Positions 12,085 through 30,201 of a stretch of 64,000 nt of DNA are shown in pieces. The stretch comes from an uncultured Gammaproteobacteria bacterium (GTDB taxonomy: Bacteria > Patescibacteriota > Patescibacteriia > UBA9934). Position 1 is the first letter of the stretch, and every line of letters begins with the position of its first letter. The notes beneath the pieces were generated by a model. The model saw only the letters and a program-made list of their open reading frames with translations, searched no databases and was not told the origin of the DNA. Location of the stretch: NCBI GenBank assembly GCA_964582615.1, contig CAZORP010000004.1, forward strand, positions 1,900 to 65,899. The letters run 5' to 3'. Made by a program: the position numbers and the translations under genes.

Positions 12085-12161
12085 TCTTGGTAATAATCAC
12101 ACTGTACGAACCCCCCACGTGTGGAGCGCCACCAATGAGGTAGAACATAGGCTAGATGTAG

Positions 12162-14594: not shown

Positions 14595-14878
14595 GACATC
14601 GCGATATGCCTGATGGTGAGTTTTGCGAGCGAATTCGAAATCATCCTCTCCTGCCGGTCTTCGTTCAATAACGTTTTTTTCTACAGATCTGTATCGAACT
14701 CATGAGGGGTTTTCATAGTGAAGAAAGTGTATCCAAAATTCTGCATAAGTTCTATCGTTTTTCGCGAAGCACGGTTATTCTCAGCTGTAATGCCGGTTGA
14801 TTGTGTCGCTCTTGCTGACGACGATAGCAGTCGCGAATCTTCACGTTCGATGTATATCGAGCAGTGAGGTGGTAATTA

Positions 14879-15823
14879 TCATACCGACTGTGACTGTAGC
14901 AATTTCAGAATCTGTTTCCTCTGATGAATTGGCACCCGAATCCATACCGAGGTGGATTCAGCGACATTCGAAAAGAGCGGTTCAAGTACGCCATGTAACC
15001 ACTCTGAATCATCTGAGTAAAGCAAAGATGACTTCGATGTGATATCGGGAATATTCACCAGGCATCGCTTGTTCCCAAATTCAGACCAGTAGGCGTCGAT
15101 GGCTTCTTTGTAGTGACCTAGAAACGCAACTGGATCTTCGCTAATTTCAAGTTGCGAAAACACGAAGGTCTTATCATTGAAATAATTCTCCATGATCTTC
15201 GTGTCATTTCGGAGCGTCTCATCAAAGTGCTCGCGCATGCCAGCTGCACATTCTTCGAAATAGCGTCGCTCCCAGCCGCCCGACATCGTGACGTGCGGTG
15301 CTAATTCCTTAAATGCCGAAAGATCACGATCGTTCGTCTCTGACGACGTAAAGTTCAAAGTGTTCTGAAGAATTGCCAATGCAAGAACATTGGCACTCGT
15401 CGACGAAATTTTCTCATCGAAACCCCGCTTCTTGAACTCTTCCCAAATCAAGGTACCAGCGGCACCGACGCGTTCAATATGTGAGTGATCGCCGAGCCGT
15501 TCCTTCCAATACTCTTCGTAACCGTAGTGATGATCGTAAATCTCACAGATCTTTGATTCGTCCTCATTGGGAAAAGCAAAATGCTCTGGACCCGAAAGAT
15601 CGACGTAGACAAAACGATCTTCTGTAGTCGGCACATATTCCGTGAGGTAATCGCCTCCCTGTTCAAGAGCTAGTTTTGTAACAGAATGATTAAGCGGACC
15701 AATAAAAACAGCCACCGCATCCTTTCCTTCTTTCTGAAGGAGCTCGGCGTAGGCGATAGCACAACCAAAGGCGTCGATGTCATTAAAAGCCTTTCCGGCG
15801 GATACAATGTACATACTAGCCAC
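14879..15823 (-). CDS. ppaC: DHH-family manganese-dependent inorganic pyrophosphatase (family II PPase)
   Basis: NDIDAFGCAIAYAEL, DHHYGY, GAAGTLI and LALAILQNTLNFTS...AFKELA segments are collinear with family II PPase motifs; 314 aa. Confidence 0.65.
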   Translation of the reverse strand: MASMYIVSAGKAFNDIDAFGCAIAYAELLQKEGKDAVAVFIGPLNHSVTKLALEQGGDYLTEYVPTTEDRFVYVDLSGPEHFAFPNEDESKICEIYDHHYGYEEYWKERLGDHSHIERVGAAGTLIWEEFKKRGFDEKISSTSANVLALAILQNTLNFTSSETNDRDLSAFKELAPHVTMSGGWERRYFEECAAGMREHFDETLRNDTKIMENYFNDKTFVFSQLEISEDPVAFLGHYKEAIDAYWSEFGNKRCLVNIPDITSKSSLLYSDDSEWLHGVLEPLFSNVAESTSVWIRVPIHQRKQILKLLQSQSV

Positions 15824-15863
15824 AGATTACCGCACATTTCCTGAACCGCAAAACTCTCAGTTA

Positions 15864-15953
15864 TTGAAAAACCACCACTAAATGGTGACGGGTTTTCAGC
15901 AGTCGCTTTGGCTAGGAATCCTATAATAGTACCAAAGCGGCTCTTGGCGGGGC
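15864..15953. repeat. intergenic repeat element R1: palindromic terminator hairpin plus tRNA-Trp 3'-end-like fragment
   Basis: ttgaaaaacc-caccactaaatggtg-gggttttca hairpin, then a 28-nt block gggttttcagcagtcgctttggctagga and a 24-nt block accaaagcggctcttggc(g)gggc, both shared with R3 next to tRNA-Trp. Confidence 0.6.
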
Positions 15954-15981
15954 TTAGTAAGCGAGGTTGGAACCTTGATGA

Positions 15982-16431
15982 TCAGCGAGTGATGTATCGA
16001 AGGATGCTGAATTTCGAAGTGGCGGTGTATACAGCCCCATTGTATAAAGCTTCGCCGTCGTTAAGCGTAAGTGTCTCGCGATAGCTATCGCCCTTCTCTC
16101 CAGCCTCCGCGTATTTGAGTGTCAAAATTTCTTGATCGCTATCAGCTTGTCGAGACTCAATCTCCATGATTGAGTAAGAACGTTTTTCGCAATATTTATA
16201 GGCGCTACCGAAACCGGGTGAAGGTTCTGCTTCGGTAACTTCACGACGACATCCTGGGTCTATAGTGACTTTTGTAACAGATTGCGGATAGACGTGGACG
16301 TACGTGATTGCACTCGAAGCATCCTGGGTATGAACATACGAAGCTCGAGGCATCAACAGCCACACGAACACAATGAGTCCGGCGAGCGGCAGTACTCCTA
16401 TTACTGTCAATATTTGCAAGTGATGTTTCAT
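15982..16431 (-). CDS. small membrane-anchored hypothetical protein
   Basis: Internal Met MKHHLQILTVIGVLPLAGLIVFVWLL is followed by a TM helix; the upstream extension of the ORF runs into repeat R4 and is probably not coding. Confidence 0.35.
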   Translation of the reverse strand: MKHHLQILTVIGVLPLAGLIVFVWLLMPRASYVHTQDASSAITYVHVYPQSVTKVTIDPGCRREVTEAEPSPGFGSAYKYCEKRSYSIMEIESRQADSDQEILTLKYAEAGEKGDSYRETLTLNDGEALYNGAVYTATSKFSILRYITR

Positions 16432-16439
16432 ACCGGATG

Positions 16440-16640
16440 AAGCATAGCGGATTTTATCTCTTGCCACAATGCGGATTCGACTCAAAAGGCACCTCACACG
16501 CATGGGTTCGATCCTCTGATGGCATAAACAAAAATCCCCGCTGAAATTAGCGGAGACTTTTGTGGCAGGGCACATGACTACTGAACTCAATTTTCAGAGG
16601 CTTTCAAAGGGTTTCAGGAACTAGATACTGGGACGCAGGT
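16440..16640. repeat. intergenic repeat element R4 with tRNA-like fragments and a terminator
   Basis: tggcagggcac..ctgaactc..ttcag block shared with R2; gggttcgatcc T-loop-like fragment; ccccgctgaaattagcgg hairpin with a T-run on the minus strand. Confidence 0.5.
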
Positions 16641-16682
16641 ACAATTAAATGGATAACTGTATATCGTATGTATTTTAAAAGC

Positions 16683-17525
16683 TCACTCATCTTGAATTAA
16701 ATGGTTGGAAAGATCCATGCTCCCCAATTTTTGGAGCATTGTTTGAAAATCTGTTACTGGATAGAGGAGGCTTATAAATGAAGAAGGAATTGCGGCGTTG
16801 TTGACGGCTGCTCGATCATCAAACCCACCCATAAAATGCAGAAATGCTTGTGTATCTTGTGCTTGAGGAGGAAGATCTTGCATTCTTAAGAGTAAAATTT
16901 TATTAGCGATAGGATTTATATCTGGTGCTGCTAAAATAAATCCCCATTGTGGCGGATTCGTGTTATATTTGAAAATTGATATGAATTGTTCTCCTGATGG
17001 CAGTTCTATTTCTTTCTGCAAGCTCTCTAAAGACTGCCAAGTTGCTATTAGTTTTATACCTTCCCGTTTATTTTCTCCAAGGTTAAAATTTACGACCGAA
17101 CGTTTATTTGTAGTTTTATGATAATCTTCTGCACATTTGACTTCTTCAAATTCGCAAACGCCTTTAATTGATATAGTAAAGAAATGGCCGTTAAGTCTTG
17201 GTAGTGGAACGGATTGTTTTTTGATCGTTGTGATTATTTGACCATCCATTGAAAGATGAGCCTCGCCAAAATAATGATGAGCGAATTTAATTCTACGCCT
17301 TGTAACTTTTGCGAAATCTTTTGTAAGACTTAAGTCAAATTTTTGCGGCATATGGGGAGGCATAATTACGAGGCTCCCCAGCCCTTCAGATTTTTTATAG
17401 TAGGGAAATGTTACATAAACACTACCATCTGAAGAATACAAAATATCAAAAATTTTAAAACACTTTCCTGATTGTGTAACTGTGATTACGTGTCTTTTTG
17501 ATCTTATGGGTGCGAGTATTGCCAT
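16683..17525 (-). CDS. AT-rich orphan hypothetical protein (280 aa)
   Basis: Long ORF with markedly lower GC than the flanking genes (about 22-40% in sampled 60-nt stretches); flanked by R4 and R2. Confidence 0.45.
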   Translation of the reverse strand: MAILAPIRSKRHVITVTQSGKCFKIFDILYSSDGSVYVTFPYYKKSEGLGSLVIMPPHMPQKFDLSLTKDFAKVTRRRIKFAHHYFGEAHLSMDGQIITTIKKQSVPLPRLNGHFFTISIKGVCEFEEVKCAEDYHKTTNKRSVVNFNLGENKREGIKLIATWQSLESLQKEIELPSGEQFISIFKYNTNPPQWGFILAAPDINPIANKILLLRMQDLPPQAQDTQAFLHFMGGFDDRAAVNNAAIPSSFISLLYPVTDFQTMLQKLGSMDLSNHLIQDE

Positions 17526-17528
17526 ACA

Positions 17529-17760
17529 GTTGAAAAACCACCAGACATTGCTGGTGGGTTTTCAACTGCGGTCATAATGCACTTAACTGCCTTTGAGAGA
17601 CGCAGGTATCCGTGAGGATAATTAGCGTTGCCCTAGGTATTCAGGTATTTCGCACCATGACAGCGCTTGGCAGGGCACTCCGCTCCTGAACTCGTTTATT
17701 CAGGGGGTTTCGGAGGATTCTGACGGTATCAAGCGAGGGACTCCGGTCACGTAAACTGTT
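17529..17760. repeat. intergenic repeat element R2
   Basis: ttgaaaaaccaccag-acattg-ctggtgggttttcaa palindromic hairpin; gcgcttggcagggcac and ggactccggtcac blocks shared with R3 and R4. Confidence 0.55.
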
Positions 17761-17790
17761 ACAAAATGTTACATGTGACGGGTATGTTCA

Positions 17791-18177
17791 CTATTCGGTA
17801 CCTTCATCAATATCTTCGATATCTTGGGCTCTTTCGAGAGCTTCCACATCAACTTCGGAACTTAGGTCTTTTAGCTCACTGGATCTATCATCGTCCTGGG
17901 TACCTGTCGGCGAAACTGGCCGGCTGTACTCATCTAATGCATCAAATACAAATGGGAGATGTTCGTCGTAACTTACTTTATAGTTACGCGCATCTACAGT
18001 CTTTTTAATGTCCTTAGTTGCGGCAATTACTTTTTCACGATTTTTAATCCAGTAATCCTTCAACTCGTTTTCCCCTAAAATTTCAGCGATATACTTCGGA
18101 TCAAATTCATATCTCGTCGCCTCAAGCGCCCTGTGATCCTGGAAATGAATGAGTAAGAAATCGGCAAAAAACTCCAC
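17791..18177 (-). CDS. small acidic hypothetical protein (128 aa)
   Basis: ORF immediately downstream of the KAP NTPase gene; D/E-rich C-terminus. Confidence 0.4.
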   Translation of the reverse strand: MEFFADFLLIHFQDHRALEATRYEFDPKYIAEILGENELKDYWIKNREKVIAATKDIKKTVDARNYKVSYDEHLPFVFDALDEYSRPVSPTGTQDDDRSSELKDLSSEVDVEALERAQDIEDIDEGTE

Positions 18178-18204
18178 TGCCCGTTCGTTGCCCTGAGGAT
18201 TGAA

Positions 18205-20904
18205 TCAGACGTCAAAAATGTATACCTGCATCTCCTTACGGATCCCTTCGTTGTCATTGATGCCGTCAGGATCGAATAGACCACTTCCTAAGTCTGAATT
18301 AGTAATCCGATTATTTATTAACTGATAAATAATAAAACTTGCGGAGATAATTTTCTCGGTCTGAACCTCATTACTGATATCTTTCTTTTCCGAGCGGACG
18401 TAACTAAGCGAATCCCCGAATAATTCTTGGTCGCTTAATGCGTAAATATCAGAAATGAAGTTTTTATTCTGACCTACGTATCTATTCTTGAATTCTTTAT
18501 ATACCAACTGAGTAATTCGTCTCACCGTATCTTTACCTTCGTGATCTGTTGTTTCACCAATTTTCTTCGCATATGCACGCAATCCGCGTTCGAGGTTATA
18601 AAAATTACCGCCTCTATATGGACTACAGTGCAAGCGTAACTTGAGACCATCGTAAAACCCAATTACTCCATTTTCTGGATCTAGAACCTTACTAACGACA
18701 CTCTTCCGCTCGCCATCCTCGAACAATGCCTCGGCAATCTGTACGACATTTGTATCATCGTTGTGGTAATAGCCGTCGCGCTGATCTTGCCAGCCTCGTT
18801 GATTCAAAAGGTAGAGTATGCGCAGAGAAATGTCGTCCCGCAAGCCCGTTCCGAGACCATCCATCTCAATCGTCGAGAAACGACGCATGCTCTCCACGAA
18901 CCAGTGGATCGTAGCCAGCGCCGTTTGCTTTGAAAATAGATCCGTATTACGAACCATGGCCTGCAGCAGCAGGCTAAAATGATATTCGGCTGGGTTGCTG
19001 ACAGAGAAAATAAACTCCTCCTCTGAGGCGAGATCGCTCATCGTCTTCTCTCCAGATCCAATCTTCCTTGCTTCATTCACATAAAACTTTTTTGCTTGAG
19101 TTTTGATTTGAGTGACACGTTCGGTCATGAGTCGCAGATAACGCTCCAAACTTCTATCAAGATGGACCGTGCCGTTCATTGCTGCAGAAAAAACACTAAA
19201 ATCATCTTCTTTGTATTTTTTCGAGAATAATTGTGCGTCAAAAAGGTTTCTTAACAAAAATCTTTCGGCATCTGTCTTTTTCAATAAGTACTCTTTGAAA
19301 AATGCTGAATTTTCATATGAACTTTTTGAGCTTTCCCATTTCCACTTAATAGAAAAGTGCTCTTTTCCGTTAATTTCGGCCGTGTAAATGTCTCGAAAAG
19401 TTTCCGAAAAATTTAGATGCAACAAAAACAGGTTGATCAAATCGTAACCCTCAAAATCAAGCTGTTCGACATCCAGATCCAACAGTCGTAATCGGATAGT
19501 ATTTACCAATCGTTTTATTTTTCGAATATCACCCAAGACATCCTTGTATCTATAAAAGATCTCGGGTTTGAATACTTCATCAATTGCTTTCTCCATTGAT
19601 TCTTTCGAAGTTGGCGTAAATGAAGAGCCCTCTTCCTCTGTCTGCTCAAATAATTTATCTATAAGATATTTTTTAAGCATTTCTGGATTAATCGTTAAAA
19701 CCTGCTTCACCGTAACTACTTTCTCGAAGTATTCCCTGATCTGAGCGGTATCGATCGATTCACGTTCAATTTTAACCAACCTAGGATCATGATCGTTATC
19801 TGGCTTTTTACCCTGAGTGGTTTTCTCCGTCTGATCTGAGCCGCCTAGAGAAACCTGAAGGTGCTCTCGCGTCTTCGTGAGATGATAAAAGCTATTAACG
19901 TTCTGCGTATCGAAACAAGTTACAAAGGAAATATATGGCAGCTTGAGACTGACACGGATTACATCGATAAAGCGCTTCACCTCATCAATGGGAAGCCTAT
20001 CAAGATCATCAATAACAATGACGAGTCGCCGCCGGGCGATTTCCAGCTGCTCTCGAATCGCCTGAACTCTATCTTCGTCAGACAGCGAATCCGGAATAAA
20101 CGACGCTAACTCTAACTTAAATAACTTCGGATAAGGCTCAATCGCCTTGGCGTACCTTGCAAAGTAATCTCCAAGTTGAGGAACGAAATTATTCTCATCT
20201 AAAAAGCCAGACAGCTGTCGTAGGAATGCCGAAAGTACATGATCTTGATCGTATCTTAATGGTTCAAATGAAAAGACTAGCGCACCAGTCTCTTCGAGAC
20301 GCTTTTTACAAAAATGAAGATACGATGACTTGCCGTAGCCCCACGGTGCATCAATTCCGAATACAAGGCTATTTGGAGACCCATTATTTTCAAGTTTATT
20401 GGCAAAATCAATCGCGTCATTCTTAACACCAAGTACGTCCGATTCTTCATCGTCAGAGAGTGGTTCATCGGATAGAAAAAATGGCTTCACTGTATTCTTA
20501 TTCTTCAAACCGAGACGCCAACCTCTCAAATGTGTAGCAGCGATTATGACAATGATTAACTTAATAACCTCAAAGAGAGCTCCATTAAACAGTGGCAAAA
20601 ATGACCACTCGGCAAAGCATGCTCTGATGACTTCATGGTATCCCGCCGCCATCCCGACACCTAGGATTACCGAGATAGCGGAATCCCACTCGGATTCTAG
20701 ATGTCTAATGATTTTAAATGCGGGAAATACGACGAGCACAAGAAAGCCAATCGCGATCAGTGGAATCGCAAATAGCGCGGCAGGCTGATACTTTTCAAAA
20801 CTTTCATAACCCAATAAAACCGCCAATGCTATGCCGATCGAGACCGTGAAGATCTGAACATTCTTCTTCACTCTAGCTGTAAGTATTGTTTTGGTTAATG
20901 ACAC
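18205..20904 (-). CDS. KAP-family P-loop NTPase with N-terminal 4-TM membrane anchor
   Basis: Walker A GIDAPWGYGKSSY; Walker B LVIVIDDLDR; 899 aa; four N-terminal hydrophobic helices. Confidence 0.7.
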   Translation of the reverse strand: MSLTKTILTARVKKNVQIFTVSIGIALAVLLGYESFEKYQPAALFAIPLIAIGFLVLVVFPAFKIIRHLESEWDSAISVILGVGMAAGYHEVIRACFAEWSFLPLFNGALFEVIKLIIVIIAATHLRGWRLGLKNKNTVKPFFLSDEPLSDDEESDVLGVKNDAIDFANKLENNGSPNSLVFGIDAPWGYGKSSYLHFCKKRLEETGALVFSFEPLRYDQDHVLSAFLRQLSGFLDENNFVPQLGDYFARYAKAIEPYPKLFKLELASFIPDSLSDEDRVQAIREQLEIARRRLVIVIDDLDRLPIDEVKRFIDVIRVSLKLPYISFVTCFDTQNVNSFYHLTKTREHLQVSLGGSDQTEKTTQGKKPDNDHDPRLVKIERESIDTAQIREYFEKVVTVKQVLTINPEMLKKYLIDKLFEQTEEEGSSFTPTSKESMEKAIDEVFKPEIFYRYKDVLGDIRKIKRLVNTIRLRLLDLDVEQLDFEGYDLINLFLLHLNFSETFRDIYTAEINGKEHFSIKWKWESSKSSYENSAFFKEYLLKKTDAERFLLRNLFDAQLFSKKYKEDDFSVFSAAMNGTVHLDRSLERYLRLMTERVTQIKTQAKKFYVNEARKIGSGEKTMSDLASEEEFIFSVSNPAEYHFSLLLQAMVRNTDLFSKQTALATIHWFVESMRRFSTIEMDGLGTGLRDDISLRILYLLNQRGWQDQRDGYYHNDDTNVVQIAEALFEDGERKSVVSKVLDPENGVIGFYDGLKLRLHCSPYRGGNFYNLERGLRAYAKKIGETTDHEGKDTVRRITQLVYKEFKNRYVGQNKNFISDIYALSDQELFGDSLSYVRSEKKDISNEVQTEKIISASFIIYQLINNRITNSDLGSGLFDPDGINDNEGIRKEMQVYIFDV

Positions 20905-21353
20905 AGTTGTATGCGGAAAACCCTATCAAAATTGCGGCCAAATGACCAGCTCAAATGTCATGCAGAAAAGTCATTCTTCTTATCGTGCACAAAAAGCACA
21001 TTCTGACTCATACTGTACTATTTTGTACCAAAATAAGGCACTTATGCACAGATTCTCTCCGGAAAATTGACGTTGATTGTACGGGCGATAAAATATCTGT
21101 TGATCGCAATCACGATTACTAACTCGTAACTCATTTTTGCCCATGCAAATGTAAAACTATTGACGCGCATGACATGTCTTCTGGCGCAATGATGCTAAGA
21201 CCATCGATGCCAAAGACAAAAAGCTATGAACATTACTGCTCCGAAGGAGGGAGCAAATCAGCAATAGCCTTTTGTTTTTGTTATCGATCTCGTTAGGAAG
21301 TCCTATCGAATCGGTAGGGCTTCTTTGCTTTTTAACAACTTAATTTCAAATGT

Positions 21354-22631
21354 ATGCCTACTCAGATACAAACCACGTATGTTCCCATAACTAATCTGAA
21401 TCCCGCGCTCTACAACCCGCGCAAATGGGACAAAGAGGCGACGAAGAAGCTCCGCGAAAGCTTGGAGCGATTCGGCTTCGTCGACCCCATCCTCGTAAAC
21501 GGCGCACCCGATCGCATGAATATTGTCATCGGTGGTCATTTCCGTCTCAAAGTTGCGAAGGATATGGGCATGACGGAAGTCCCTGTCGTCTATCTCCATA
21601 TCCCAGACATCGAGAAGGAGAAGGAACTCAACCTTCGTCTCAATCGTAATACCGGTACGTGGGATTACGACCTTCTCAAGGCATTCGATACTAACTTCCT
21701 ACAGGATGTCGGCTTTGATGCGTTGGACCTCCAGAATGTCTGGGGAGATCTTGCATCCATCGACGACCGACTCATTCTGAAGGAGGGTGAGGTTGAACCT
21801 CCAGAAAAACCAACCATTCAAGATGGCGAAATCTATAAGCTCGGAGATCATCTTTTGATGTGTGCGGATTCTACAGGCCCCGCCAATGCCGCTCGTCTCA
21901 TGAGAGAAGAAAAAGCAGACATGATCTATTGTGATCCTCCGTATAACATCAAACTAGATTACGCGAATGGCGTTTCAACGGACGGCAAATACGCTGGGCA
22001 AGTAAATGATGCGTTGCCAGACGGTGAGTACCAAGAATTCATCAAAAAATCAGTCGAGGTTGCACTATCCGTCGCGAAGCCCGACGCACACATCTTTTAC
22101 TGGTGTGACCAGAGGTATATCTGGTTGGTTCAGCGTGTATATCGGCACTGGAAGATTGAAAATCGCCGCGTGTGCTTGTGGATCAAGAACAACTTCAACA
22201 TGACTCCGCAGGTTGCCTTCAATAAGGCATACGAGCCGTGCGTCTATGGAACGATCGGAAAGCCATACCTCAATCCTGATGTCACGAATCTTCACGAGAT
22301 CGTGAACAAAGACGTGGACGCGGGTAACCGAGCAACGAGCGACATCATCGATCTTTTTGACATCTGGCTTGCGAGTCGTGATGCAGGACAGGAATACGAA
22401 CACCCGACTCAAAAACCCCTCTCACTCCACGAGAAGCCACTGAAACGCTGCACAAAGCCGGGTGACGTTATCTTGGATCTCTTTGGTGGCAGCGGATCGA
22501 CGCTTCTTGCGTGCGAGCAAATGCGTCGCAAAGCAAGGCTCATAGAAAAGAATCCTGCATTTTGTCACGTCATCATCAAAAGATTCGAGGAGATGACCGG
22601 TCTTAAGGCTGAAAAAGTAACGAGTAACTAA
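21354..22631 (+). CDS. ParB-like nuclease domain fused to a beta-class N6A/N4C DNA methyltransferase
   Basis: N-terminal ParB/Srx-like region (YNPRKW...VNGAPDRMNIVIGGHFR); MTase motif IV CDPPYN before motif I FGGSGST. Confidence 0.75.
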   Translation: MPTQIQTTYVPITNLNPALYNPRKWDKEATKKLRESLERFGFVDPILVNGAPDRMNIVIGGHFRLKVAKDMGMTEVPVVYLHIPDIEKEKELNLRLNRNTGTWDYDLLKAFDTNFLQDVGFDALDLQNVWGDLASIDDRLILKEGEVEPPEKPTIQDGEIYKLGDHLLMCADSTGPANAARLMREEKADMIYCDPPYNIKLDYANGVSTDGKYAGQVNDALPDGEYQEFIKKSVEVALSVAKPDAHIFYWCDQRYIWLVQRVYRHWKIENRRVCLWIKNNFNMTPQVAFNKAYEPCVYGTIGKPYLNPDVTNLHEIVNKDVDAGNRATSDIIDLFDIWLASRDAGQEYEHPTQKPLSLHEKPLKRCTKPGDVILDLFGGSGSTLLACEQMRRKARLIEKNPAFCHVIIKRFEEMTGLKAEKVTSN

Positions 22632-22632
22632 T

Positions 22633-23418
22633 ATGGAAATTCAAAACGGTGCATTCATTCAACTTGGAAAGCATCGGCTTCTATGCGGTGATTCAACGAA
22701 TCCTTCAGATGTCGCAATGCTTCTTGGAGATACCCGCATCGATCTCGTGCTCACAGATCCTCCTTACGGCGTCGGTTATGTGGAAAGCAAGGAAGGATTC
22801 ACGCAGGAACTCGCTAAACCGAAGGTCATCGAGAATGATCACGTACAGACCGAAGAAGAGTATTTGGAGTTCACTAAGAAATGGCTCTCACTTATTCCTC
22901 CGTACCTCACAGATAAGAACGCGATCTACATCTTCAATACCGACAAAATGCTCTTTCCATTGCGAGCGGGTATGGAGTCATGTGGCATGAAGTTTGCGCA
23001 GCTCCTCATCTGGGCTAAGACTCATGCGGTCATTGGTCGCTTGGATTATCTTCCGCAGCACGAACTTATTGCTTACGGCTGGCACGGGACGCACGCGTTC
23101 AAGAAAGCCAAGGACAAAAGCATCCTCGTGCACCCAAAACCCGCCAAGAGCAAGTATCACCCGACCATGAAGCCGATTGGTCTTCTACGACGTCTTATTC
23201 TTAATAGCTCAGATGTTGGTTCAAACGTCTTTGATCCTTTTGGTGGAAGCGGCTCAACACTCCTTGCTTGCGAGCAAACAGGGCGTGTCTGCTTCATGAT
23301 CGAGAAAGACAAAGAGTACTGCCAAACCATCGTGAGTCTCTATGAACGCATGACGGGCGACGTCGCGGTAGTAATTGAACCAGCATATGGAGGAACCGAA
23401 GCAGCAACGCCGGTATGA
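22633..23418 (+). CDS. beta-class N6A/N4C DNA methyltransferase, paralog of the upstream MTase domain
   Basis: TDPPYGVGY and FGGSGSTLLACEQ; C-terminus near-identical in pattern to the upstream gene. Confidence 0.75.
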   Translation: MEIQNGAFIQLGKHRLLCGDSTNPSDVAMLLGDTRIDLVLTDPPYGVGYVESKEGFTQELAKPKVIENDHVQTEEEYLEFTKKWLSLIPPYLTDKNAIYIFNTDKMLFPLRAGMESCGMKFAQLLIWAKTHAVIGRLDYLPQHELIAYGWHGTHAFKKAKDKSILVHPKPAKSKYHPTMKPIGLLRRLILNSSDVGSNVFDPFGGSGSTLLACEQTGRVCFMIEKDKEYCQTIVSLYERMTGDVAVVIEPAYGGTEAATPV

Positions 23419-23926
23419 GAACGCTCAACGTCGGAAGGCTAAACAGAAACTACAAATCATCAATACGCTTCGAGAGACGGGCAATATCGAGGCCGCCTGT
23501 CGCAAAGTCGGCATCGCGCGCAATACGTATTACGTGTGGGCTAAGGATGATCACGAATTCAAGATTGAAGCCGAGAAGGCTCTTGTCATTGGCACCGAGG
23601 TAGTTTGTGACACTCTTGAAAGCAGGTTAGTCGCTCGAGCGAATTCGGGCGAGGGCTGGGCGTTGAAGTACTATCTCGGGAATAAGCATCCAGATTACAG
23701 TCCGCGAGCCAGCGCCCGCAAATATCATCGAGAGAATGAGCAGTCTGATGAATTCTCTGATGAAGATGAGCGCCACATTGAGCATGCTCTAAAAATGCTC
23801 GAGTACTTGGAGCCCTGTGAGGACCCGTCCCACCATGGCCACAAGATGCTACCTCCGCCTCCGCCGGCGGCTGTCAATGACAAAGCAGGCGACGACGACG
23901 AGGATCTTGACGGTGCATTTAGCTAA
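23387..23926 (+). CDS. HTH protein resembling terminase small-subunit / transposase-type HTH, with an acidic C-terminal tail
   Basis: GNIEAACRKVGIARNTYYVW helix-turn-helix; start could also be 23375. Confidence 0.4.
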   Translation: MEEPKQQRRYENAQRRKAKQKLQIINTLRETGNIEAACRKVGIARNTYYVWAKDDHEFKIEAEKALVIGTEVVCDTLESRLVARANSGEGWALKYYLGNKHPDYSPRASARKYHRENEQSDEFSDEDERHIEHALKMLEYLEPCEDPSHHGHKMLPPPPPAAVNDKAGDDDEDLDGAFS

Positions 23927-24529
23927 CTACTTTGTCACTTCCGTAGAAAGGAAAACCGTGGTGGTCTGCTTCGTGGCATCGTTTACCGCAACGAGTCCAT
24001 AGCCGATCGTGTCACTTGGGATTTCATAAACGATCACGCCCTTCTTTGGAATGGACGGACTGAGCGTCTGAACTTCCAAATAGTTATCGATAGATCCGAT
24101 GGTGTCATCGTAGGTCGTATAACCCCGCCCTTCGCCATCTCCGAGTCGCAAGTACTGGTTTGGCATGTAGAGAAAATCCGAGGTCGACTTCGAGGTCACT
24201 TGCAGTTCAATAATGACAAACTTCGTCCCCTCAACGGCAGCGACCGGCTTGCCGTAGCGTGAACTCATGGTTTGCGCCTCACGGACACTGAGAACCTTCA
24301 TCTCATGCGTTGCGAGGTCGATTGGATTGTTGATCTTTGCCTCGACGACTTCTTTCTCGGAATTCTTGGTGTTCGTAGTTATGGAACCGGACGGAGTTAC
24401 CGTGGTCTTTGGACGATCGCTTCCGTCATCCATGTACGGTGCGATAATGAAAATGAACAAAATGAAACCGAGGACTCCCGTGAGGATCTTATGCTGCTTG
24501 AACCAGCTCTGTTTTGGGTCATTCGACAT
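23927..24529 (-). CDS. membrane-anchored DUF4352-like protein
   Basis: N-terminal TM helix; Thr/Ser-rich linker; beta-rich domain with YLRLGDGEGRGY...VIVYEIP. Confidence 0.4.
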   Translation of the reverse strand: MSNDPKQSWFKQHKILTGVLGFILFIFIIAPYMDDGSDRPKTTVTPSGSITTNTKNSEKEVVEAKINNPIDLATHEMKVLSVREAQTMSSRYGKPVAAVEGTKFVIIELQVTSKSTSDFLYMPNQYLRLGDGEGRGYTTYDDTIGSIDNYLEVQTLSPSIPKKGVIVYEIPSDTIGYGLVAVNDATKQTTTVFLSTEVTK

Positions 24530-24879
24530 AGTAAAGCGTATGAGGAATTAATCCCGAGTATTGCTAAAACAAAAAGCGACACCCGGTGGCGCTTTACAAC
24601 CCAGCCCAAGCACGGATCGTGCAAGGTCTGTTTTAACCGGATGCCGCTCATTGCGCGCGATCCGGAAATAGCCAAATACGGCCTGCAAAGGCTGAGTTGT
24701 AAAGCACCGACATAGTAGCATAGGCACCCCCAAAGTAAAGCGATTTGCTCAGTATTTTGCCTTTCCTTATACCTTGAGGGCTTTTGAGTTACCTACAGGT
24801 CTGGGGCTAGGCACCCCGGACAGGTGTGGCATCAATGTAGCTGTCCCCTAGGGAACTAGGGCGCACAAACTACGAACAT

Positions 24880-26295
24880 ATGCCGGAACACAATCCGCTC
24901 CACAGTCCCACGCTTCTCGCGGAAAATAGAGCTAACAATATAGGTAAAGGCGATGCAAAAGTTGATCTTCGGTATTGCCTCTATGCACGCAAGTCATCCG
25001 AAGATGACGAACGTCAAGCGTTGTCCATCGATTCACAAATCAACGAAATGATGGAACTGGCGAGAAAGGAAGGAATGGACATCGTTGAGACGCGTCGAGA
25101 GAGTCATTCAGCAAAGTCATCCGGCGAGCGACCGGAATTCAATCAATTGATGATCGATATCGATAAAGGACTCTTCAATGCCATTCTCACATGGGCGCCA
25201 GATCGCTTGAGTCGTAACGCTGGAGATCTTGGGTCACTCGTTGATCTCATGGATCGTGCGAAGCTTCATGAGATCAGGACGCACTCACAGAAGTTCACGA
25301 ACTCACCGAATGAAAAGTTCCTCCTGATGATCCTCGGAAGCCAGGCAAAGCTCGAGAATGACAATCGCGGTATTAATGTAAAACGTGGCCTCAAGAACAA
25401 AGTTGAAATGGGATGGCGGCCAGGACTTCCGCCCCTTGGCTACTACAACGAGAGATCAATTAATCGCGGTCAGAATAGAATCTTCATCGATGAAGAACGT
25501 GCACCGACCATTAAAAAGCTCTTTGAACTCGTCGCGTACGAAAAGATGACTGGAAGGGCACTTTTTACCTACTTGAAAGAGATTAATTTCAAAACGCGAA
25601 CCGATAAATTCGTCAGTGTTAGTAGCGTCTACAAGATCCTCAAGAACAGATTTTATTACGGCGAGTTCGAGTTCCCGGAAGGGAGCAGCAAGATCTATAA
25701 GGGAGCACACGAACCGCTTATAACAAAAGAGTTGTTCGATCGCGTACAAAATCAGCTCACTATTCCCGACCGACCAATCCAAGGCATTAAAGAATTCTCT
25801 TTTACGAAGATGTTCAAATGCGGCGCATGCGGCTCCGGCATCACCGCAGAGGAAAAGATTAAGAAGATCAAAGGAACAGAAGAGATACGAAAATACATCT
25901 ACTATCGGTGCGGAAAATCCAACGGGCGTATCTGTGACGAGAAGCCGATGCGTGAACAAGATATCCTCAATCAGCTCCTAGAACTTATTGATTCAATCGA
26001 GATCGATAGGATTGGTGCGCAAAAACGCATCGAAGACGAGCTGAAGCGTTACGCTGCATTCTCAGAAGGGGTGCTCGGAAAGAAGATCAATAAGCCAAAA
26101 CAAAAGGAGGTCAGCATTCGAAAATATGCAAAGCATATTCTCACAAATGGAACTCGCGAGGAGAAGCGAGAAATTCTGGAGCATGTAAAACACTGTATAG
26201 TGATATTCAATAGAGCTCTAAAGCTCGAATCCCTGGCACTGCCTAATGAAGCAAGAGAAGACCCCCCACGTTTAGAGAAACGCGGGGGGTCATGA
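24880..26295 (+). CDS. large serine recombinase (integrase)
   Basis: Resolvase catalytic region YARKSSEDDERQALSIDSQ; recombinase domain; zinc-ribbon CGACGSG...YYRCG; coiled-coil C-terminus. Confidence 0.8.
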   Translation: MPEHNPLHSPTLLAENRANNIGKGDAKVDLRYCLYARKSSEDDERQALSIDSQINEMMELARKEGMDIVETRRESHSAKSSGERPEFNQLMIDIDKGLFNAILTWAPDRLSRNAGDLGSLVDLMDRAKLHEIRTHSQKFTNSPNEKFLLMILGSQAKLENDNRGINVKRGLKNKVEMGWRPGLPPLGYYNERSINRGQNRIFIDEERAPTIKKLFELVAYEKMTGRALFTYLKEINFKTRTDKFVSVSSVYKILKNRFYYGEFEFPEGSSKIYKGAHEPLITKELFDRVQNQLTIPDRPIQGIKEFSFTKMFKCGACGSGITAEEKIKKIKGTEEIRKYIYYRCGKSNGRICDEKPMREQDILNQLLELIDSIEIDRIGAQKRIEDELKRYAAFSEGVLGKKINKPKQKEVSIRKYAKHILTNGTREEKREILEHVKHCIVIFNRALKLESLALPNEAREDPPRLEKRGGS

Positions 26296-26297
26296 AG

Positions 26298-27143
26298 TCA
26301 CTCGAGGCGTCGAATCGCAGCCCGGAGGACGTCGGCTGCGAGGGTGTTGGGCTTATACCTCAGACCGAGAACGCTCCGAGGCAACTCACCGCACGTGATA
26401 CCGAGGGAATCGTAAAAGTCTGCGGTTGCACCGAGGACTCTTCTCGAAAACTCTCGTTCGACGTTCTTCGGAATCGAAGCCCACTGCGTGGGCTTCCCGA
26501 ACGGCAAGACATAGGGAGCTCCGGTATTCAGAAGGCCCATGACCGTTCTTCCGGAAAGTGGCGCACCCGGCATGAAGTCTCGTTCGCAGATCTCATCTGT
26601 GACTTCGGAGTATTCACGTACTGCCGTGACAGAGCAGTTACGTGCCCGCAGTCGCTCAATACCTTCACCGATTGCGACACCGGCGAAAACGTGGCCAACC
26701 CGAATGTTTCGCTCCAGGAAGAGATCGATGATGCGTTCCATCATCGCTCCGCTGAAAACCACGTCATCCACGAGAGCTATGTCACGCTCATGGATAGTCG
26801 CAGCTACCTCGTCCACGATGGCGGTCAAATCCGTGTAGATGCCATCTCTCGTCCCGTAACCAGCATCACGTAGACCGCCATCAACCAGTCTGGTGACGTT
26901 GATCTGCAGCGCTCTCGGTGCGTAGACTCGATCCAGGCTGACGACCGGGAACGAAGAGTTGGCGAGGATATCCGAGAGCCCATCACGCAGCTCGCTCTCG
27001 GAAATCCATTCAGTCGAGCCAACGCTAACGTGCAAGGCGCTCTTCACCTCAGCGCGAAACCCCTCCAACACCGTATCGGGAACAACAAACCCAGCCTCTC
27101 GCCACAGCGTAGCGAGATCACAGGACACAACGTACGGACGCAT
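26298..27143 (-). CDS. type I phosphoribosyltransferase-domain protein, GC-rich
   Basis: PRPP-binding motif IALVDDVVFSGAMM; GC content clearly above that of its neighbours. Confidence 0.5.
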   Translation of the reverse strand: MRPYVVSCDLATLWREAGFVVPDTVLEGFRAEVKSALHVSVGSTEWISESELRDGLSDILANSSFPVVSLDRVYAPRALQINVTRLVDGGLRDAGYGTRDGIYTDLTAIVDEVAATIHERDIALVDDVVFSGAMMERIIDLFLERNIRVGHVFAGVAIGEGIERLRARNCSVTAVREYSEVTDEICERDFMPGAPLSGRTVMGLLNTGAPYVLPFGKPTQWASIPKNVEREFSRRVLGATADFYDSLGITCGELPRSVLGLRYKPNTLAADVLRAAIRRLE

Positions 27144-27220
27144 GTCGAACTCCTTGGAACCTCCCAGCGTCTTTGCCGGGAGGGAGCGAATGCACTGCTT
27201 TCACTGCAACCGATCCCTTC

Positions 27221-27772
27221 CTACAAAGAAGGGATTTGATGCACGACACGCACCGCTTGGATGGCCATAGCGACCGCAGCTTCCGGAGTTGATGCAACTT
27301 CGATACGTACTCGTTCACGCGGGTCAATAAATGTCCCAGCGAGACGTTCACTCCAGCCGCCAGTATTCTCGATGGTAATAATCGGAATATTGGCCTGATA
27401 GGCGATAGCCATTTCCGTGAGTGTTCCGGAGCCACCGTTTAAACAAATGATTGCATCGCAAGATGATACAAGTACAAACTCTCGACCGCCGCCACGACCC
27501 ATACCTGCCGTGACAATTGCGTCAGCGTTCTTTTCAACAACACCGTCAATGTCTTTGCCGTAGGTAACCCCAACCACAAAGCCTCCCGCACGCTTTGCAC
27601 CGCGGCAGGCGGCGGATGAAAGCGAATCAAGGTCTTTCTCTGCGCCGAACAATAAAATCGCACCCGCTTTCGCAATCTCTTCACCGACGCTTTCGGCTAA
27701 CACTGCAATCTTCGTTGAGTACTGAAGATCCGAACAAGAGCCCATCACGCCAATCTGTAATTTTCGTTTCAT
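27221..27772 (-). CDS. LOG / TIGR00725-like Rossmann-fold nucleotide-binding protein
   Basis: IGVMGS start and NGGSGTLTEMA (GGxGTxxE) motif. Confidence 0.55.
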   Translation of the reverse strand: MKRKLQIGVMGSCSDLQYSTKIAVLAESVGEEIAKAGAILLFGAEKDLDSLSSAACRGAKRAGGFVVGVTYGKDIDGVVEKNADAIVTAGMGRGGGREFVLVSSCDAIICLNGGSGTLTEMAIAYQANIPIITIENTGGWSERLAGTFIDPRERVRIEVASTPEAAVAMAIQAVRVVHQIPSL

Positions 27773-27773
27773 A

Positions 27774-28997
27774 TTATTTCGTGTAGTTTGTGATATCGAC
27801 AGTTCGCTGTTCTCCGGAAACCATGTTCTTCACTATCACCGAATTCGATGCCGCCTCTTCGGGGGTAATCATGATCACTTCTGTCGCATTGAGGCGATTC
27901 GCCATCGTCAGCTGCTTTTTCATACTGTAGGGCGGCATAGCAAGAATAGCGATCTTTCCGTCTACTCTGAGACTCTGCGCGATAGTCGTTGCAAGCGATG
28001 CTTCGTTTTCAGAAAACGGCAAAATGAACGTCTTCTCAGGCGAATTAACTGTGACGGTTTTTTGCTGCGCCTCAAGTGCCGCGAGTAGTGCCACGTCGCT
28101 TACAGCAAACCCAATACCACTCATCGACTTACCGCCGACTGCCTCCAGGAGGTTGTCATAGCGACCGCCGCCAAACACAGCTCTATTGAATGATCCGGAT
28201 GTCTCGACCACTTCAAAAACAATACCCGTGTAATAAGAGAAGCCACGCATAAGCTTTGGATCGTATACAAGCTGTGTCCAGCCAAGCTTTTTCGCTCCGG
28301 CAATTACATTCAATAATCGTTGTGTCGGTTGAATGTCGTCAAGAATAGCCAAATCTTCCTGCCGCAGGTTCGGACTAATTTCCTTCAGTCGAGCGATGAA
28401 TTCTTCTAATGTCAGTTTATCTCGTTCGTCCAGAAGTGTGAGCATTTGCCCCTTTTCATCTCCGACAATGGACAGTCGTTCGCATGTGACGTCGAAAGAT
28501 GTTCGATCATTCATGCACATCTGAATCTTCTCCATATCGAATCCGATCTTTTTCATGATCGAAAGGGCGACGTCAACGATCTCGATATCGGCTTCAATAG
28601 TATTCGATCCAAGAAAATCAACATTGATCTGGACAAAGTTTCTCGTACGACCTTTCTGAGGGCGTTCGTAACGCCAGCATTCAGGAAAACTAAACCATCG
28701 AATAAGTGATGGGAGTTCGCCTTGCTTATTCGCCACCATACGTGCGAATGAAGGCGTAAGTTCTGGACGAACAACGATCTTTTCCCCGCCACGATCCGTG
28801 AAAACATAAGACTGACGCTCAACGATTTCGGCACTGGATTTCGCCTCATAAAGAGCCATCGGCTCCAAGATTGGTGCTTCGTATTCTTCGTAACCAGCGC
28901 ACTCCAAAACAGCTCTACAAGAGCTCGTTAGTGCATTGCGCTCACGCATGTCGTTCGGATAGAGGTTACGTGTACCTCGTAATGGTTGAATCTGCAT
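27774..28997 (-). CDS. hisS: histidine--tRNA ligase
   Basis: Motif 2 RYERPQKGRTRNFVQINVDFLG; motif 3 GGGRYDNL; C-terminal anticodon-binding-like domain; 407 aa. Confidence 0.75.
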   Translation of the reverse strand: MQIQPLRGTRNLYPNDMRERNALTSSCRAVLECAGYEEYEAPILEPMALYEAKSSAEIVERQSYVFTDRGGEKIVVRPELTPSFARMVANKQGELPSLIRWFSFPECWRYERPQKGRTRNFVQINVDFLGSNTIEADIEIVDVALSIMKKIGFDMEKIQMCMNDRTSFDVTCERLSIVGDEKGQMLTLLDERDKLTLEEFIARLKEISPNLRQEDLAILDDIQPTQRLLNVIAGAKKLGWTQLVYDPKLMRGFSYYTGIVFEVVETSGSFNRAVFGGGRYDNLLEAVGGKSMSGIGFAVSDVALLAALEAQQKTVTVNSPEKTFILPFSENEASLATTIAQSLRVDGKIAILAMPPYSMKKQLTMANRLNATEVIMITPEEAASNSVIVKNMVSGEQRTVDITNYTK

Positions 28998-29180
28998 ATA
29001 CTTTGCTTAGAAAATAAAGAAACCCGCCGATAAGCGGGCTTCTCTGCAGTCATTCAATGGAATAACGTCAAACAATCCCGCTTATGCATGGCGGGTATGA
29101 TGAGAAACGTTAAATGCGTTGCGCATTGATTCCATAACGCTGGAAGAATACCGTGAACTCTGAAAAATGTCAATATAGAT
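28998..29180 (-). promoter_or_regulatory. possible hisS promoter with a structured leader containing alternative hairpins
   Basis: TTGACA on the minus strand near 29170; two hairpins with the same stem (cccgc..gcggg), the second followed by a T-run about 25 nt before the hisS ATG. Confidence 0.25.
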
Positions 29181-29189
29181 CCGATAGGC

Positions 29190-29987
29190 CTACTTTAGAA
29201 TGATAGGCCTTGCCGCAAATTTGTTAACCAATTCAACAACCGCTTTTACGCTTGCTTCATAATCTGCATCTAGTAGCCGAACATACAATGGCTCATATCC
29301 GGAGATGGAAACACCTCCGTTTTTCTGGTGCACAACCGCATCTCTAAGCTTCTTAGCTTTCATGAAAGTACCCCAGAAAGCCTCCTGTTTGATTGAAGAT
29401 TGATCCTTAATATCGGCCAACACTTCCAACTTCTCAACGGTCGATAACCTATGTTCAATTTCAACCTTCGTGAGTTTCTCTGTGTAATTTTTCCCGAAGA
29501 AAGCCATAATCTTTTGAAGAATTCCTCGAGGCTTTACGGTTCGATGAAGCACGTGCTGACTCGGTATCGCCTGCGTGCAAAATACCTCAACAGCTGCAAG
29601 AAGAGCGAAGTGAAAGGACATTGCGCTTTGGAAGAAGCGATAGGCGAGTTCTTTTGGAACAATAGTTACCACCTCTGCGTTTGGATCTTCTTGCAATGCG
29701 CGTTCTGCAGTCATCTCAGGATCCGGACTCGATGTAAACACCTGCTTCTGTGGCGTAGATGCAATCTCTGCTTTTAAGGCGGCAACTTCATCAGCCAATC
29801 GGCATGCCTCGTTCAAAAGAAGATGACAGGGTGATTGAGCGATAATCATCAGACTTCCGAAGGTCATTGTATCGAGCTTGTGGCTCAATACGAGTTTAGC
29901 ACCCTTCTCGTGTTTTATTTTTGAACCAGCTATCTGGACAGGTTGTGCTAACTCTGATTCGAAGATAGGTTCAATTTCTATATGCAT
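29190..29987 (-). CDS. hypothetical protein (265 aa)
   Basis: ORF with coding-like composition between R3/tRNA-Trp and the hisS leader; no motif recognised. Confidence 0.4.
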   Translation of the reverse strand: MHIEIEPIFESELAQPVQIAGSKIKHEKGAKLVLSHKLDTMTFGSLMIIAQSPCHLLLNEACRLADEVAALKAEIASTPQKQVFTSSPDPEMTAERALQEDPNAEVVTIVPKELAYRFFQSAMSFHFALLAAVEVFCTQAIPSQHVLHRTVKPRGILQKIMAFFGKNYTEKLTKVEIEHRLSTVEKLEVLADIKDQSSIKQEAFWGTFMKAKKLRDAVVHQKNGGVSISGYEPLYVRLLDADYEASVKAVVELVNKFAARPIILK

Positions 29988-30010
29988 ACTATTATTTTAA
30001 AGTTTACCTA

Positions 30011-30127
30011 TTGAAAAACCGCCACCTTTCGATGACGGGTTTTCAGCAGTCGCTTTGGCTAGGACTCCGGTCACAGGAACCCGTCCTGAGTCCTATGGGA
30101 ATCCGGTCACAGCACCAAAGCGGCTCT
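30011..30127. repeat. repeat element R3 immediately downstream of tRNA-Trp: hairpin plus nested inverted repeats
   Basis: Shares the 28-nt and 24-nt blocks with R1; internal palindromes (gtgaccgga[tg]tcc x2, aggactc..gagtcct). Confidence 0.6.
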
Positions 30128-30201
30128 TGGCAGGGGCGGAGGGAATCGAACCCGCGCTAAAGGTTTTGGAGACCTCTGTACTGCCATTATACGACGCCCC
30201 T
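30128..30201 (-). tRNA. trnW: tRNA-Trp (anticodon CCA)
   Basis: Reverse-complement reads AGGGGCGTCGTATAATGGCAGTACAGAGGTCTCCAAAACCTTTAGCGCGGGTTCGATTCCCTCCGCCCCTGCCA; acceptor AGGGGCG/CGCCCCT; U8; anticodon loop CTCCAAA; TTCGATT T-loop; encoded CCA; ends closely resemble E. coli tRNA-Trp. Confidence 0.85.

Follow-up and report, generated by a model that had tools for sequence, protein, structure and literature searches.

A conserved structured trailer behind tRNA-Trp and its copies at a putative insertion hotspot in Patescibacteria

The window analysed here comprises 64,000 nucleotides of contig CAZORP010000004.1 (GenBank assembly GCA_964582615.1, positions 1,900 to 65,899 of the forward strand), deposited under the name of an uncultured Gammaproteobacteria bacterium and placed by GTDB in the Patescibacteriota (Patescibacteriia, UBA9934). 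Within it, a tRNA-Trp(CCA) gene carries a structured trailer at its 3' end (element R3), and three further elements with tRNA-3'-like sequence (R1, R2 and R4) lie on the same strand, two of them including a trailer. We found that the trailer is a conserved structured module tied to tRNA-Trp, because it is linked to this gene in other genomes and because its alignment covaries. The reading that we favour, with a probability of about one half, is that the tRNA-Trp 3' end is a site-specific insertion hotspot in this Patescibacteria clade, the additional copies being remnants of attachment (att) sites. By homologues of its hisS, DHH-family phosphoesterase and recombinase genes, the window was likewise assigned to Patescibacteria (the candidate phyla radiation, CPR).

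The trailer of tRNA-Trp is a conserved structured module

In a first-pass annotation of this DNA, an intact tRNA-Trp and, immediately downstream, a structured element of about 115 nt (R3) had been described, and the R elements had been taken as copies of the tRNA 3' end and its downstream flank. This description was borne out. The tRNA was called by ARAGORN and by Rfam (56 bits), is the only tRNA that these programs found in the window, and has a promoter-like site at 30247-30219. All R elements share its orientation, and the three full copies span 14.3 kb (Table 1).

When read on the tRNA strand, R3, R2 and R1 are made of the same four parts in the same order: a stub resembling a CCA-ending tRNA 3' end, the motif AAG(A/C)GC, a long hairpin and a palindromic intrinsic terminator of consensus TGAAAAyCC(r)yCA..TGGyGGTTTTTCA. 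Each R element carries 8-24 nt of tRNA-like 3' end, and folding of the tRNA strand gave a hairpin and a terminator for all three full copies. A generic terminator consensus was ruled out as the source of their similarity, since the terminator module occurs at these three sites only within the 64 kb. No promoter-like site was found upstream of R1 or R2 on the tRNA strand, and both probably now end the transcripts of the cargo upstream.

When 12-13 copies were aligned, compensatory changes appeared at three positions of an 8-bp closing stem and at two of the terminator stem. Pairing was preserved in 98.4% of the cells, as against 28-53% in slid controls. Double-sided changes were counted in 23 cells, compared with 8.2 +/- 2.6 in shuffled alignments, none of which (0/500) reached 23. 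A covariance model built from 12 copies recovered exactly three full copies in the 64 kb, namely R3 (130 bits), R2 (121 bits) and R1 (86 bits), while R4 was marginal (E = 0.27). Compared with Rfam, the trailer matched no family at the gathering threshold, which only the tRNA passed, and E-value scans of the R regions remained at chance level. Readings as signal recognition particle RNA, 6S RNA or transfer-messenger RNA were likewise rejected, no Rfam match reaching the threshold for the trailer, for the structured X element or for the hisS leader, both described below.

The repeats combine a trailer with a short tRNA-like stub

R1 had been reported to repeat two blocks of R3, of 28 and 24 nt, the second including about 9 nt of the tRNA 3' end. 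Two blocks are indeed shared, but their exact lengths are 31 nt (15887-15917 = 30034-30064) and 18 nt (15931-15948 = 30114-30131), for which shuffles gave 0 and 0.1 expected chance matches. The second block enters the tRNA by 4 nt (GCCA). If one deleted T is allowed for (GCCCCGCCA versus GCCCCTGCCA), the tRNA-like part extends to about 9-10 nt, in agreement with the earlier count.

For R2 and R4, a different remnant of the tRNA 3' end had been proposed. The sequence GTGCCCTGCCA is found exactly at 17668-17678(-) and 16563-16573(-), but its true identity to the tRNA is short. Both sites have the pattern GAGTTCAG-N8-GTGCCCTGCCA in common, preceded by a 37-nt similarity whose score was reached in 0/300 shuffles. 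Against the tRNA itself, they match by GTTC at the T-loop position and by the last 8 nt, which makes 13/24 positions when counted by hand. Throughout R1, R2 and R4, true identity to the tRNA end covers only 8-11 nt, the bulk of the repeat being trailer. The T-loop-like fragment that had also been assigned to these copies did not hold up: GGGTTCGATCC lies at 16504-16514 on the opposite (+) strand, 0.94 such occurrences are expected with one mismatch, and chance level being not clearly exceeded, it was not counted.

Between R1 and the start of the DHH gene, at 15830-15849 (+) and about 15 nt past the R1 terminator, a pseudo-stub resembling the R2 stub was noticed (GGTTCAGGAAATGTGCGG in the minus-strand reading). 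It is placed like TTCATAGTCATGTGCC, which ends the block common to two metagenome loci presented in the next section.

Trailer type is uncoupled from the tRNA in other genomes

A trailer of the R3 type follows tRNA-Trp in locus L007, whose hisS is 83% identical to that of the window, and in L005 (hisS 70% identical) the place after tRNA-Trp is taken by an element 88% identical to R2 by BLAST, the identity of its trailer to that of R2 being 87%. A pattern scan of species-representative genomes returned 50 matches, 48 of which were unrelated terminators of other phyla; the remaining two, L036 and L055, are Patescibacteria and lie directly 3' of tRNA-Trp. With a stricter pattern, seven loci were obtained from JGI metagenomes, five with tRNA-Trp and trailer (L062, L064, L066, L067 and L068) and two with a stub-only trailer (L063 and L065). 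The trailer adjoins the tRNA-Trp 3' end in every related Patescibacteria locus in which the tRNA is visible. A dispersed repeat family, for instance of miniature inverted-repeat transposable elements (MITEs), had been considered in the first-pass annotation; it was rejected, with three same-strand copies in the window, 2 genome and 7 metagenome loci in the collection scans, 7/9 of them directly 3' of tRNA-Trp.

Three trailer types, A, B and C, were distinguished, and the type does not follow the tRNA sequence. The tRNAs of the window and of L005 are 97% identical, whereas the trailers are 58% identical. Conversely, the window tRNA is 78% and 77% identical to those of L064 and L066, while copy R2 is 94% and 93% identical to their trailers. 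For L067 and L068, the values are 82% for the tRNA and 100% for the trailer. The identical block of these two loci (about 190 nt), flanked on either side by unrelated DNA, begins in the T-arm and stops 37 nt past the terminator; its last nucleotides, TTCATAGTCATGTGCC, resemble the R4 stub.

Furthermore, every trailer copy that does not follow a tRNA (R1, R2, L063 and L065) starts at the same point, 8-11 nt inside the tRNA 3' end, and the R1 stub resembles that of L065 (score reached in 2/300 shuffles). No two of the genomes examined have the same gene 3' of the trailer. The orphan proteins adjacent to trailers show no pairwise similarity and belong to no families, by which a novel integrase common to them was ruled out. 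In the whole viral collection, no contig carried a trailer or stub.

Small islands are found beside tRNA genes of relatives

In L005, tRNA-Trp and a type-B trailer are followed by the genes of a HIT protein, a 251-aa protein and GrpB, and then by a truncated trailer. The order in L007 is tRNA-Trp, trailer, a 235-aa gene and a stub AGTTCAG-N8-GTGTCCTGCCA with terminator; immediately after the stop codon of the 235-aa gene stands AAGTTCAGAATCGCTGTGTCCTGCCA plus terminator. In L006, an exact 27-nt direct repeat of the 3' end of another tRNA (GGGTTCGAGTCCCGTCCGTCCCGCCA, at 12069-12095 and 14649-14679 on the minus strand) brackets a 2.5-kb island that contains a Peptidase_M15 gene, an acetyltransferase gene and a 171-aa open reading frame (ORF), and no integrase. 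The terminator beside that other tRNA is homologous to the R4 terminator, and 0.7 kb past the stub is the gene of a serine recombinase that shares 52% identity with that of the window.

A tRNA 3'-end stub (GGTTCGAGTCCCGTCCATCCCGCCA) was also seen at 17655-17678(-) of L088, an IMG/VR viral contig of the wider ParB-methyltransferase/TerS/TerL-like family, in a gene-poor region and with no tRNA called. It may be an attP site or an att junction.

The 3' end of tRNA-Trp as a proposed insertion hotspot

Because trailer type is uncoupled from the tRNA and two relatives contain integrase-less islands, R2, R4 and R1 are most likely attR-type junctions, in which an element-derived arm and stub are fused to an older trailer and which bound one-gene cassettes. 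In the mechanism that we propose, incoming DNA would recombine at or near the boundary between CC and CTGCCA at the end of the tRNA gene. As the incoming DNA would bring its own trailer, termination of the tRNA transcript would be preserved. The older trailer would be pushed distally, behind a short tRNA-like stub supplied by the arm of the incoming element, to give an attR-type junction, and displaced trailers would go on terminating the transcripts of the cargo. The putative cassettes, a 280-aa orphan gene and a decayed segment of about 0.55 kb, encode no integrase, and the recombinase that moved them would presumably be encoded elsewhere or have been lost since. For the position of hisS between the tRNA and the old junctions, the candidate explanations are replacement of a block by that of a relative and att-mediated translocation. 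The extreme 3' end of tRNA genes is reportedly a recognised sublocation for integrases (Williams, in 2002, is said to have described it). That tRNA fragments remain as attR scars and are later parted from the full gene by rearrangement has been documented (PMC9897764).

The R3-R2 stretch (12.4 kb) is itself composite. It joins the core hisS operon to a reduced element with a large serine recombinase (LSR), a ParB-methyltransferase (ParB-MTase) and TerS, together with PifA-like cargo. The reading of 15864-30201 as one island was given up: the hisS-SLOG-281aa gene order is syntenic in L006 and L007, where hisS is 76-83% identical, and the Band7-DUF1003-tRNA-Trp...hisS...RR-HK (response regulator and histidine kinase) backbone is colinear with L005.

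Several observations weigh against insertion at the tRNA. What the R2 and R4 stubs have in common with the real tRNA is limited to GTTC and 8 nt, and as their pattern was defined after R2 and R4 had been seen, its shuffle statistics are optimistic. No viral contig contains a trailer or stub, hence no donor element with an intact attP is known. Neither a tyrosine integrase nor another candidate recombinase was detected in any cassette; in searches of all ORFs of 14.9-31.6 kb with Pfam, PHROGs and PADLOC, no tyrosine integrase appeared and the only recombinase was the serine recombinase. The trailer has a junction at its far boundary as well, so that some other route could transfer or swap the whole module. 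The hisS operon, which is essential and keeps its synteny in relatives, stands between the tRNA and the presumed old junctions, an arrangement that simple serial insertion does not predict.

In addition, no empty site was found among the relatives identified by hisS and DHH. None could be defined because their neighbourhoods are too rearranged: DHH (76-82% identical) has wholly different neighbours in three relatives, and in the closest relatives with usable contigs (hisS 70-83%, DHH 76-82% identity) hisS-SLOG-281aa is kept while the rest is unique to each genome. A scan of the genome collection with hisS peptides recovered no relative. The earlier proposal that direct duplications of the tRNA 3' end reflect serial insertion at one hotspot stands in part: the uncoupling of trailer and tRNA, the L005 and L007 islands and the lack of the local replication-strand GC3 skew in the interval speak for it, but the tyrosine integrase and the empty site were not found.

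The large serine recombinase belongs to a separate element family

The only recombinase seen in the interval has Resolvase, Recombinase and Zn_ribbon_recom domains (E = 1e-22, 1e-16 and 8e-7, respectively) and matches the PHROG 95 integrase (7e-65). It is part of an element family (21.35-26.3 kb in the window) that is separate from the repeats, and a role for it in making them is not supported. About 8000 proteins of this LSR family are present in CPR at E < 1e-60. The order ParB-MTase-MTase-TerS-...-LSR recurs in the IMG/VR contigs L069 and L071 (LSR 50-54% identical) and in the Logan contigs L073/L074 (83%) and L075 (79%). A TerL-like gene present in these relatives is missing from the window copy. 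Their variable defence genes comprise restriction-modification (RM) systems, SNF2-PLD and HNH genes convergent to the LSR gene, and on the left an S24 repressor, SMODS or SLATT gene; the left-side defence cargo of the window is the PifA-like KAP NTPase. The left end of the window element lies between 17.7 and 21.3 kb and the right end at or beyond 26295.

We consider it rather unlikely, on balance, that this element itself integrates beside tRNA-Trp. On that account, R3...R2 (30127-17531) would be one 12.6-kb element with R3 and R2 as attL and attR, and hisS-SLOG-PRTase-like would occupy a variable cargo slot between the trailer and the recombinase 3' end. The geometry is suggestive, as the recombinase 3' end faces the tRNA-Trp trailer at 3.7 kb in the window, 5.5 kb in L073/L074 and 1 kb in L064, where the LSR C-terminus lies that far from tRNA-Trp plus trailer. 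Both L073 and L074 stop within a type-A trailer that shares 91% identity with R3 and is oriented to the LSR as in the window, and their slot holds type I RM and HNH genes. L069, L071, L073 and L075 again show the core, followed beyond the LSR by convergent defence genes; the L006 LSR lies beside the stub of another tRNA, at the distance given above; and the viral contig L088, of the wider ParB-MTase family, has a tRNA 3' stub without a tRNA. On the other hand, large serine recombinases, to our knowledge, act on att sites that measure about 40-50 bp and have a 2-bp crossover, and they make no long direct repeats or arm-type similarity, so that the R1-R3 repeats are foreign to the class. The trailer was present in 0/22 fetched viral loci of the family and in no contig when the whole viral collection was scanned. 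Moreover, hisS-SLOG-281aa, which sits in the slot here, is conserved as a block of the chromosome in L006 and L007. The unit of X element and LSR is intact upstream of the recombinase gene in the window; if X holds attP, LSR-mediated integration at this site is disfavoured. That the LSR element had entered the 281-aa gene at its 3' end was also rejected, all three 281-aa proteins (window, L006 and L007) having full-length C-termini.

Two side observations concern this family. L073 and L074, which are 36 kb and 21 kb long and come from different samples, both end at the same base, 17005, inside the trailer, which points either to a repeat that broke the assembly or to a junction that varies between strains. 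The X element, about 220 nt, is 84% identical to L006 6113-6338, where it stands upstream of hisS and 4 kb from the LSR, and it also lies upstream of the LSR in L075. Its fold is very stable (z = -6.1 on the minus strand, with a closing stem of about 20 bp) and belongs to no Rfam family. It could be a noncoding RNA or the att or regulatory region of the LSR.

Other possible origins of the repeats

Quite unlikely, in our judgement, is an origin without any site-specific integration. The trailer would then be a terminator or processing element of the tRNA-Trp unit, and R1 and R2 would derive from segmental duplication, gene conversion or recombination with DNA of relatives and be kept as useful terminators. 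Functional-looking terminators do stand exactly at the ends of cargo genes, no integrase is present, and the gene order of the clade is heavily scrambled. The R1/R3 blocks are perfectly identical, as against about 83% identity with L007, which fits intragenomic conversion. Such an origin is opposed by the common starting point of R1, R2, L063 and L065 inside the tRNA 3' end; by the type of R2, which differs from the resident trailer and is near-identical to the trailers of distant lineages; and by the motif that the R2, R4 and L007 stubs share and that is not the sequence of the host tRNA.

It is very doubtful that the trailer is a structured recombination site comparable to integron attC/attI. 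According to this idea, a tRNA-Trp-anchored cassette platform would be widespread in Patescibacteria, and promoter-bearing single genes, each with a hairpin-terminator and a tRNA-mimic stub, would be exchanged between CC and CTGCCA by a recombinase acting in trans, possibly of the abundant LSR family; core genes such as hisS could also be trapped or moved. As in integron arrays, single-gene units lie in one orientation, anchored at one fixed site, between hairpin sites of about 60-140 nt that vary in sequence and are conserved in structure. Unlike integrons, the locus has no IntI (no tyrosine recombinase in the window region), its hairpins have a terminator after and a tRNA-like stub before them, and only 2-3 units are present; no R'/R'' cores were identified, attC cores being not specifically modelled.

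Least probable of all is that the trailer, with its stub, hairpin and terminator (about 95-190 nt), is mobile in its own right as a small non-autonomous module, MITE- or attC-like, that targets CCA-type ends and has recombination junctions at both boundaries. The identical L067/L068 block amid unrelated DNA, the type-B trailer directly after an unrelated gene in L063 and the point at which the trailer of the window diverges from that of L073, about 7 nt beyond the terminator, would fit. Against this, neither terminal inverted repeats nor target-site duplications were observed, the window has only three copies in one orientation, and collection-wide scans yielded only 2 genome and 7 metagenome matches. 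Moreover, among 11 loci with a trailer that were recovered outside the window, the trailer directly follows tRNA-Trp in 8, while two are stub-only and one, L073/L074, is cut by the contig end.

Relation to known integrative systems

Returning to insertion at the tRNA-Trp 3' end, the locus is a variant of a known tRNA-anchored accretion pattern, unusual in its structured trailer as the repeat, its integrase-less single-gene units and its embedded core operon. In streptococci, integrative and conjugative elements (ICEs) and cis-mobilizable elements (CIMEs) form arrays by tandem accretion at tRNA 3' ends and leave partial tRNA copies as attR scars. As in these arrays, an intact tRNA stands at one end, directly oriented partial copies of its 3' end are found farther out, inner units lack recombination genes and the cargo is orphan or of defence type. 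In contrast to them, the repeated unit is mostly trailer (80-137 nt), to which tRNA-like sequence adds only 8-24 nt, each unit is a single gene whose mobility is putative, no integrase class is linked to the junctions, and an essential gene lies inside the array. A further likeness is with tRNA-fragment attR sites, whose scars rearrangement can separate from the tRNA (PMC9897764). Compared with Islander-type tRNA islands, which rely on a tyrosine integrase, the tRNA at the boundary is intact here and there is no tyrosine integrase.

The recombinase, by its Resolvase, Recombinase and Zn-ribbon domains, resembles those of LSR prophages and integrative elements of the phiC31, Bxb1 and A118 type (PHROG 95), and it stands in a phage-derived ParB-MTase/MTase/TerS module that is syntenic in viral contigs; unlike such prophages, the window copy has no TerL or structural genes, and long R1-R3 repeats are alien to this enzyme class. 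In gene content, the relatives L073 and L075 are reminiscent of phage-inducible chromosomal islands (PICIs) and other phage satellites, which combine an integrase, TerS and a repressor and lack structural genes: both encode an S24 repressor, TerS, a TerL-like protein and an LSR besides defence cargo, and structural genes are not in view. Unlike PICIs, the distant relative L088 continues beyond the TerL-like gene with more ORFs and may be a full phage.

Patescibacteria genomes are tiny, and their acquisition of accessory and defence genes is poorly described; a targeted literature search gave nothing specific. If the favoured reading holds, tRNA-Trp is a concrete recurrent acquisition hotspot in this group, whose junctions are marked by a conserved structured DNA/RNA module, absent from Rfam and exchanged between lineages independently of the tRNA. 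Beside it stands an abundant LSR-centred element family that shuttles defence genes. Should the trailer turn out to be the substrate of recombination, it would amount to an att architecture not described before, by which islands in metagenome-assembled CPR genomes could be traced easily from sequence; otherwise, the locus is an ordinary decayed tRNA-linked plasticity zone.

Genes and composition of the interval

The features of the interval are collected in Table 1. The calls of the first-pass annotation for DHH, KAP NTPase, ParB-MTase, MTase, the TerS-like helix-turn-helix (HTH) protein, DUF4352, the large serine recombinase, SLOG and hisS were all upheld. That of a phosphoribosyltransferase (PRTase) was retained at the level of its phosphoribosyl-pyrophosphate motif only (E = 0.002 to TT1426, deposited as hypothetical, and E = 0.1 to hypoxanthine PRTases).

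Table 1. Features between the DHH gene and tRNA-Trp, in window coordinates.
Feature	Position	Strand	Remarks
DHH-family phosphoesterase (ppaC-like)	14879-15823	-	flanking core gene, within the GC3-skew anomaly
R1	15865-15977	-	degenerate stub CAAGGTTCCAACCTCGCTTACTAAGCCCCGCCA (15945-15977) and type-A trailer with inner hairpin deleted (15865-15944)
Segment of about 0.55 kb	15978-16528	-	doubtful 202-aa TTG ORF only, no family match; taken by us as decayed cargo
R4	16529-16586	-	stub GTTCAGTAGTCATGTGCCCTGCCA (16563-16586) and simple terminator (16529-16562)
AT-rich 280-aa orphan gene	16683-17525	-	GC 0.37, GC3 0.28; single-gene cassette between R2 and R4
R2	17531-17691	-	tRNA-3'-like stub GTTCAGGAGCGGAGTGCCCTGCCA (17668-17691) fused to full type-B trailer (17531-17667)
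Arm upstream of R2 stub	17692-17750	-	GTGACCGGAGTCCC (17737-17750), a type-A hairpin fragment, and a 37-nt stretch resembling the R4 upstream sequence
Acidic 128-aa ORF	17791-18177	-	beside KAP NTPase
KAP NTPase, PifA-like	18205-20904	-	defence-type cargo left of LSR core
Reduced LSR element core	21354-26295	+	synteny with relatives
ParB-MTase	21354-22631	+	
MTase	22633-23418	+	
TerS-like HTH	23375-23926	+	
DUF4352	23927-24529	-	PHROG 806
X element	24563-24782		structured, noncoding
Large serine recombinase	24880-26295	+	PHROG 95
Core block (hisS leader, hisS, SLOG, PRTase-like)	26298-29137	-	synteny in L006 and L007; Pfam
PRTase-like, 281 aa	26298-27143	-	
SLOG/LDcluster4	27221-27772	-	Pfam
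hisS	27774-28997	-	
Orphan ORF, 265 aa	29190-29987	-	directly 3' of R3 trailer
R3, type-A trailer	30012-30127	-	closing stem CGCTTTGG/CCAAAGCG enclosing a 60-nt inner hairpin, then palindromic terminator TGAAAACCCGTCA..TGGCGGTTTTTCA
tRNA-Trp(CCA)	30128-30201	-	intact, CCA encoded; ARAGORN, Rfam

The composition of the interval is uneven, as had been stated earlier, with a GC content of 0.35-0.37 at 16.6-17.5 kb and of 0.56 at 26.2-27.4 kb. The GC skew at third codon positions (GC3 skew) of the + strand is also anomalous. Outside 14.2-30.8 kb it is +0.17 for + strand genes and +0.25 for - strand genes, whereas inside it is -0.08 and -0.01, respectively (Mann-Whitney p = 1e-5). Besides the obvious foreign genes, the anomaly takes in hisS, DHH and DUF1003. 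In L005, the skew of hisS equals that of its flanks; on the coding strand, the hisS skew of L006 and L007 is similar to the window's. No inverted repeats were detected at the borders of the anomaly, where R1 and R3 are the sole significant repeats; with the orientation relative to Band7 and RR-HK as in L005, a single inversion was rejected. Import or translocation of the entire 14.2-30.8 kb region may have taken place, for example through homologous replacement with DNA of a relative or through att-mediated cis-mobilisation, and would also explain the presence of hisS between the tRNA and the old junctions.

Finally, two features of the hisS block were noted. The SLOG (LDcluster4) and PRTase-like 281-aa genes are paired immediately 3' of hisS, a pairing kept in L006 and L007. 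Domain pairs of the SLOG/PRTase type are typical of nucleotide-signalling or conflict systems; this pair looks like part of the core operon.

The leader of hisS, at 29011-29137(-), is conserved in five genomes. Among Rfam families it gave only sub-threshold matches, to Phe, Trp and Leu leaders. A short ORF (29082-29135) encodes MESMRNAFNVSHHTRHA up to its stop codon, with three His codons near the end, and the corresponding peptide of L007 ends in SHHTRHT before the stop. Alternative hairpins and a terminator, the latter at 29011-29040, follow the short ORF. The arrangement looks like leader-peptide attenuation of the histidyl-tRNA synthetase gene.

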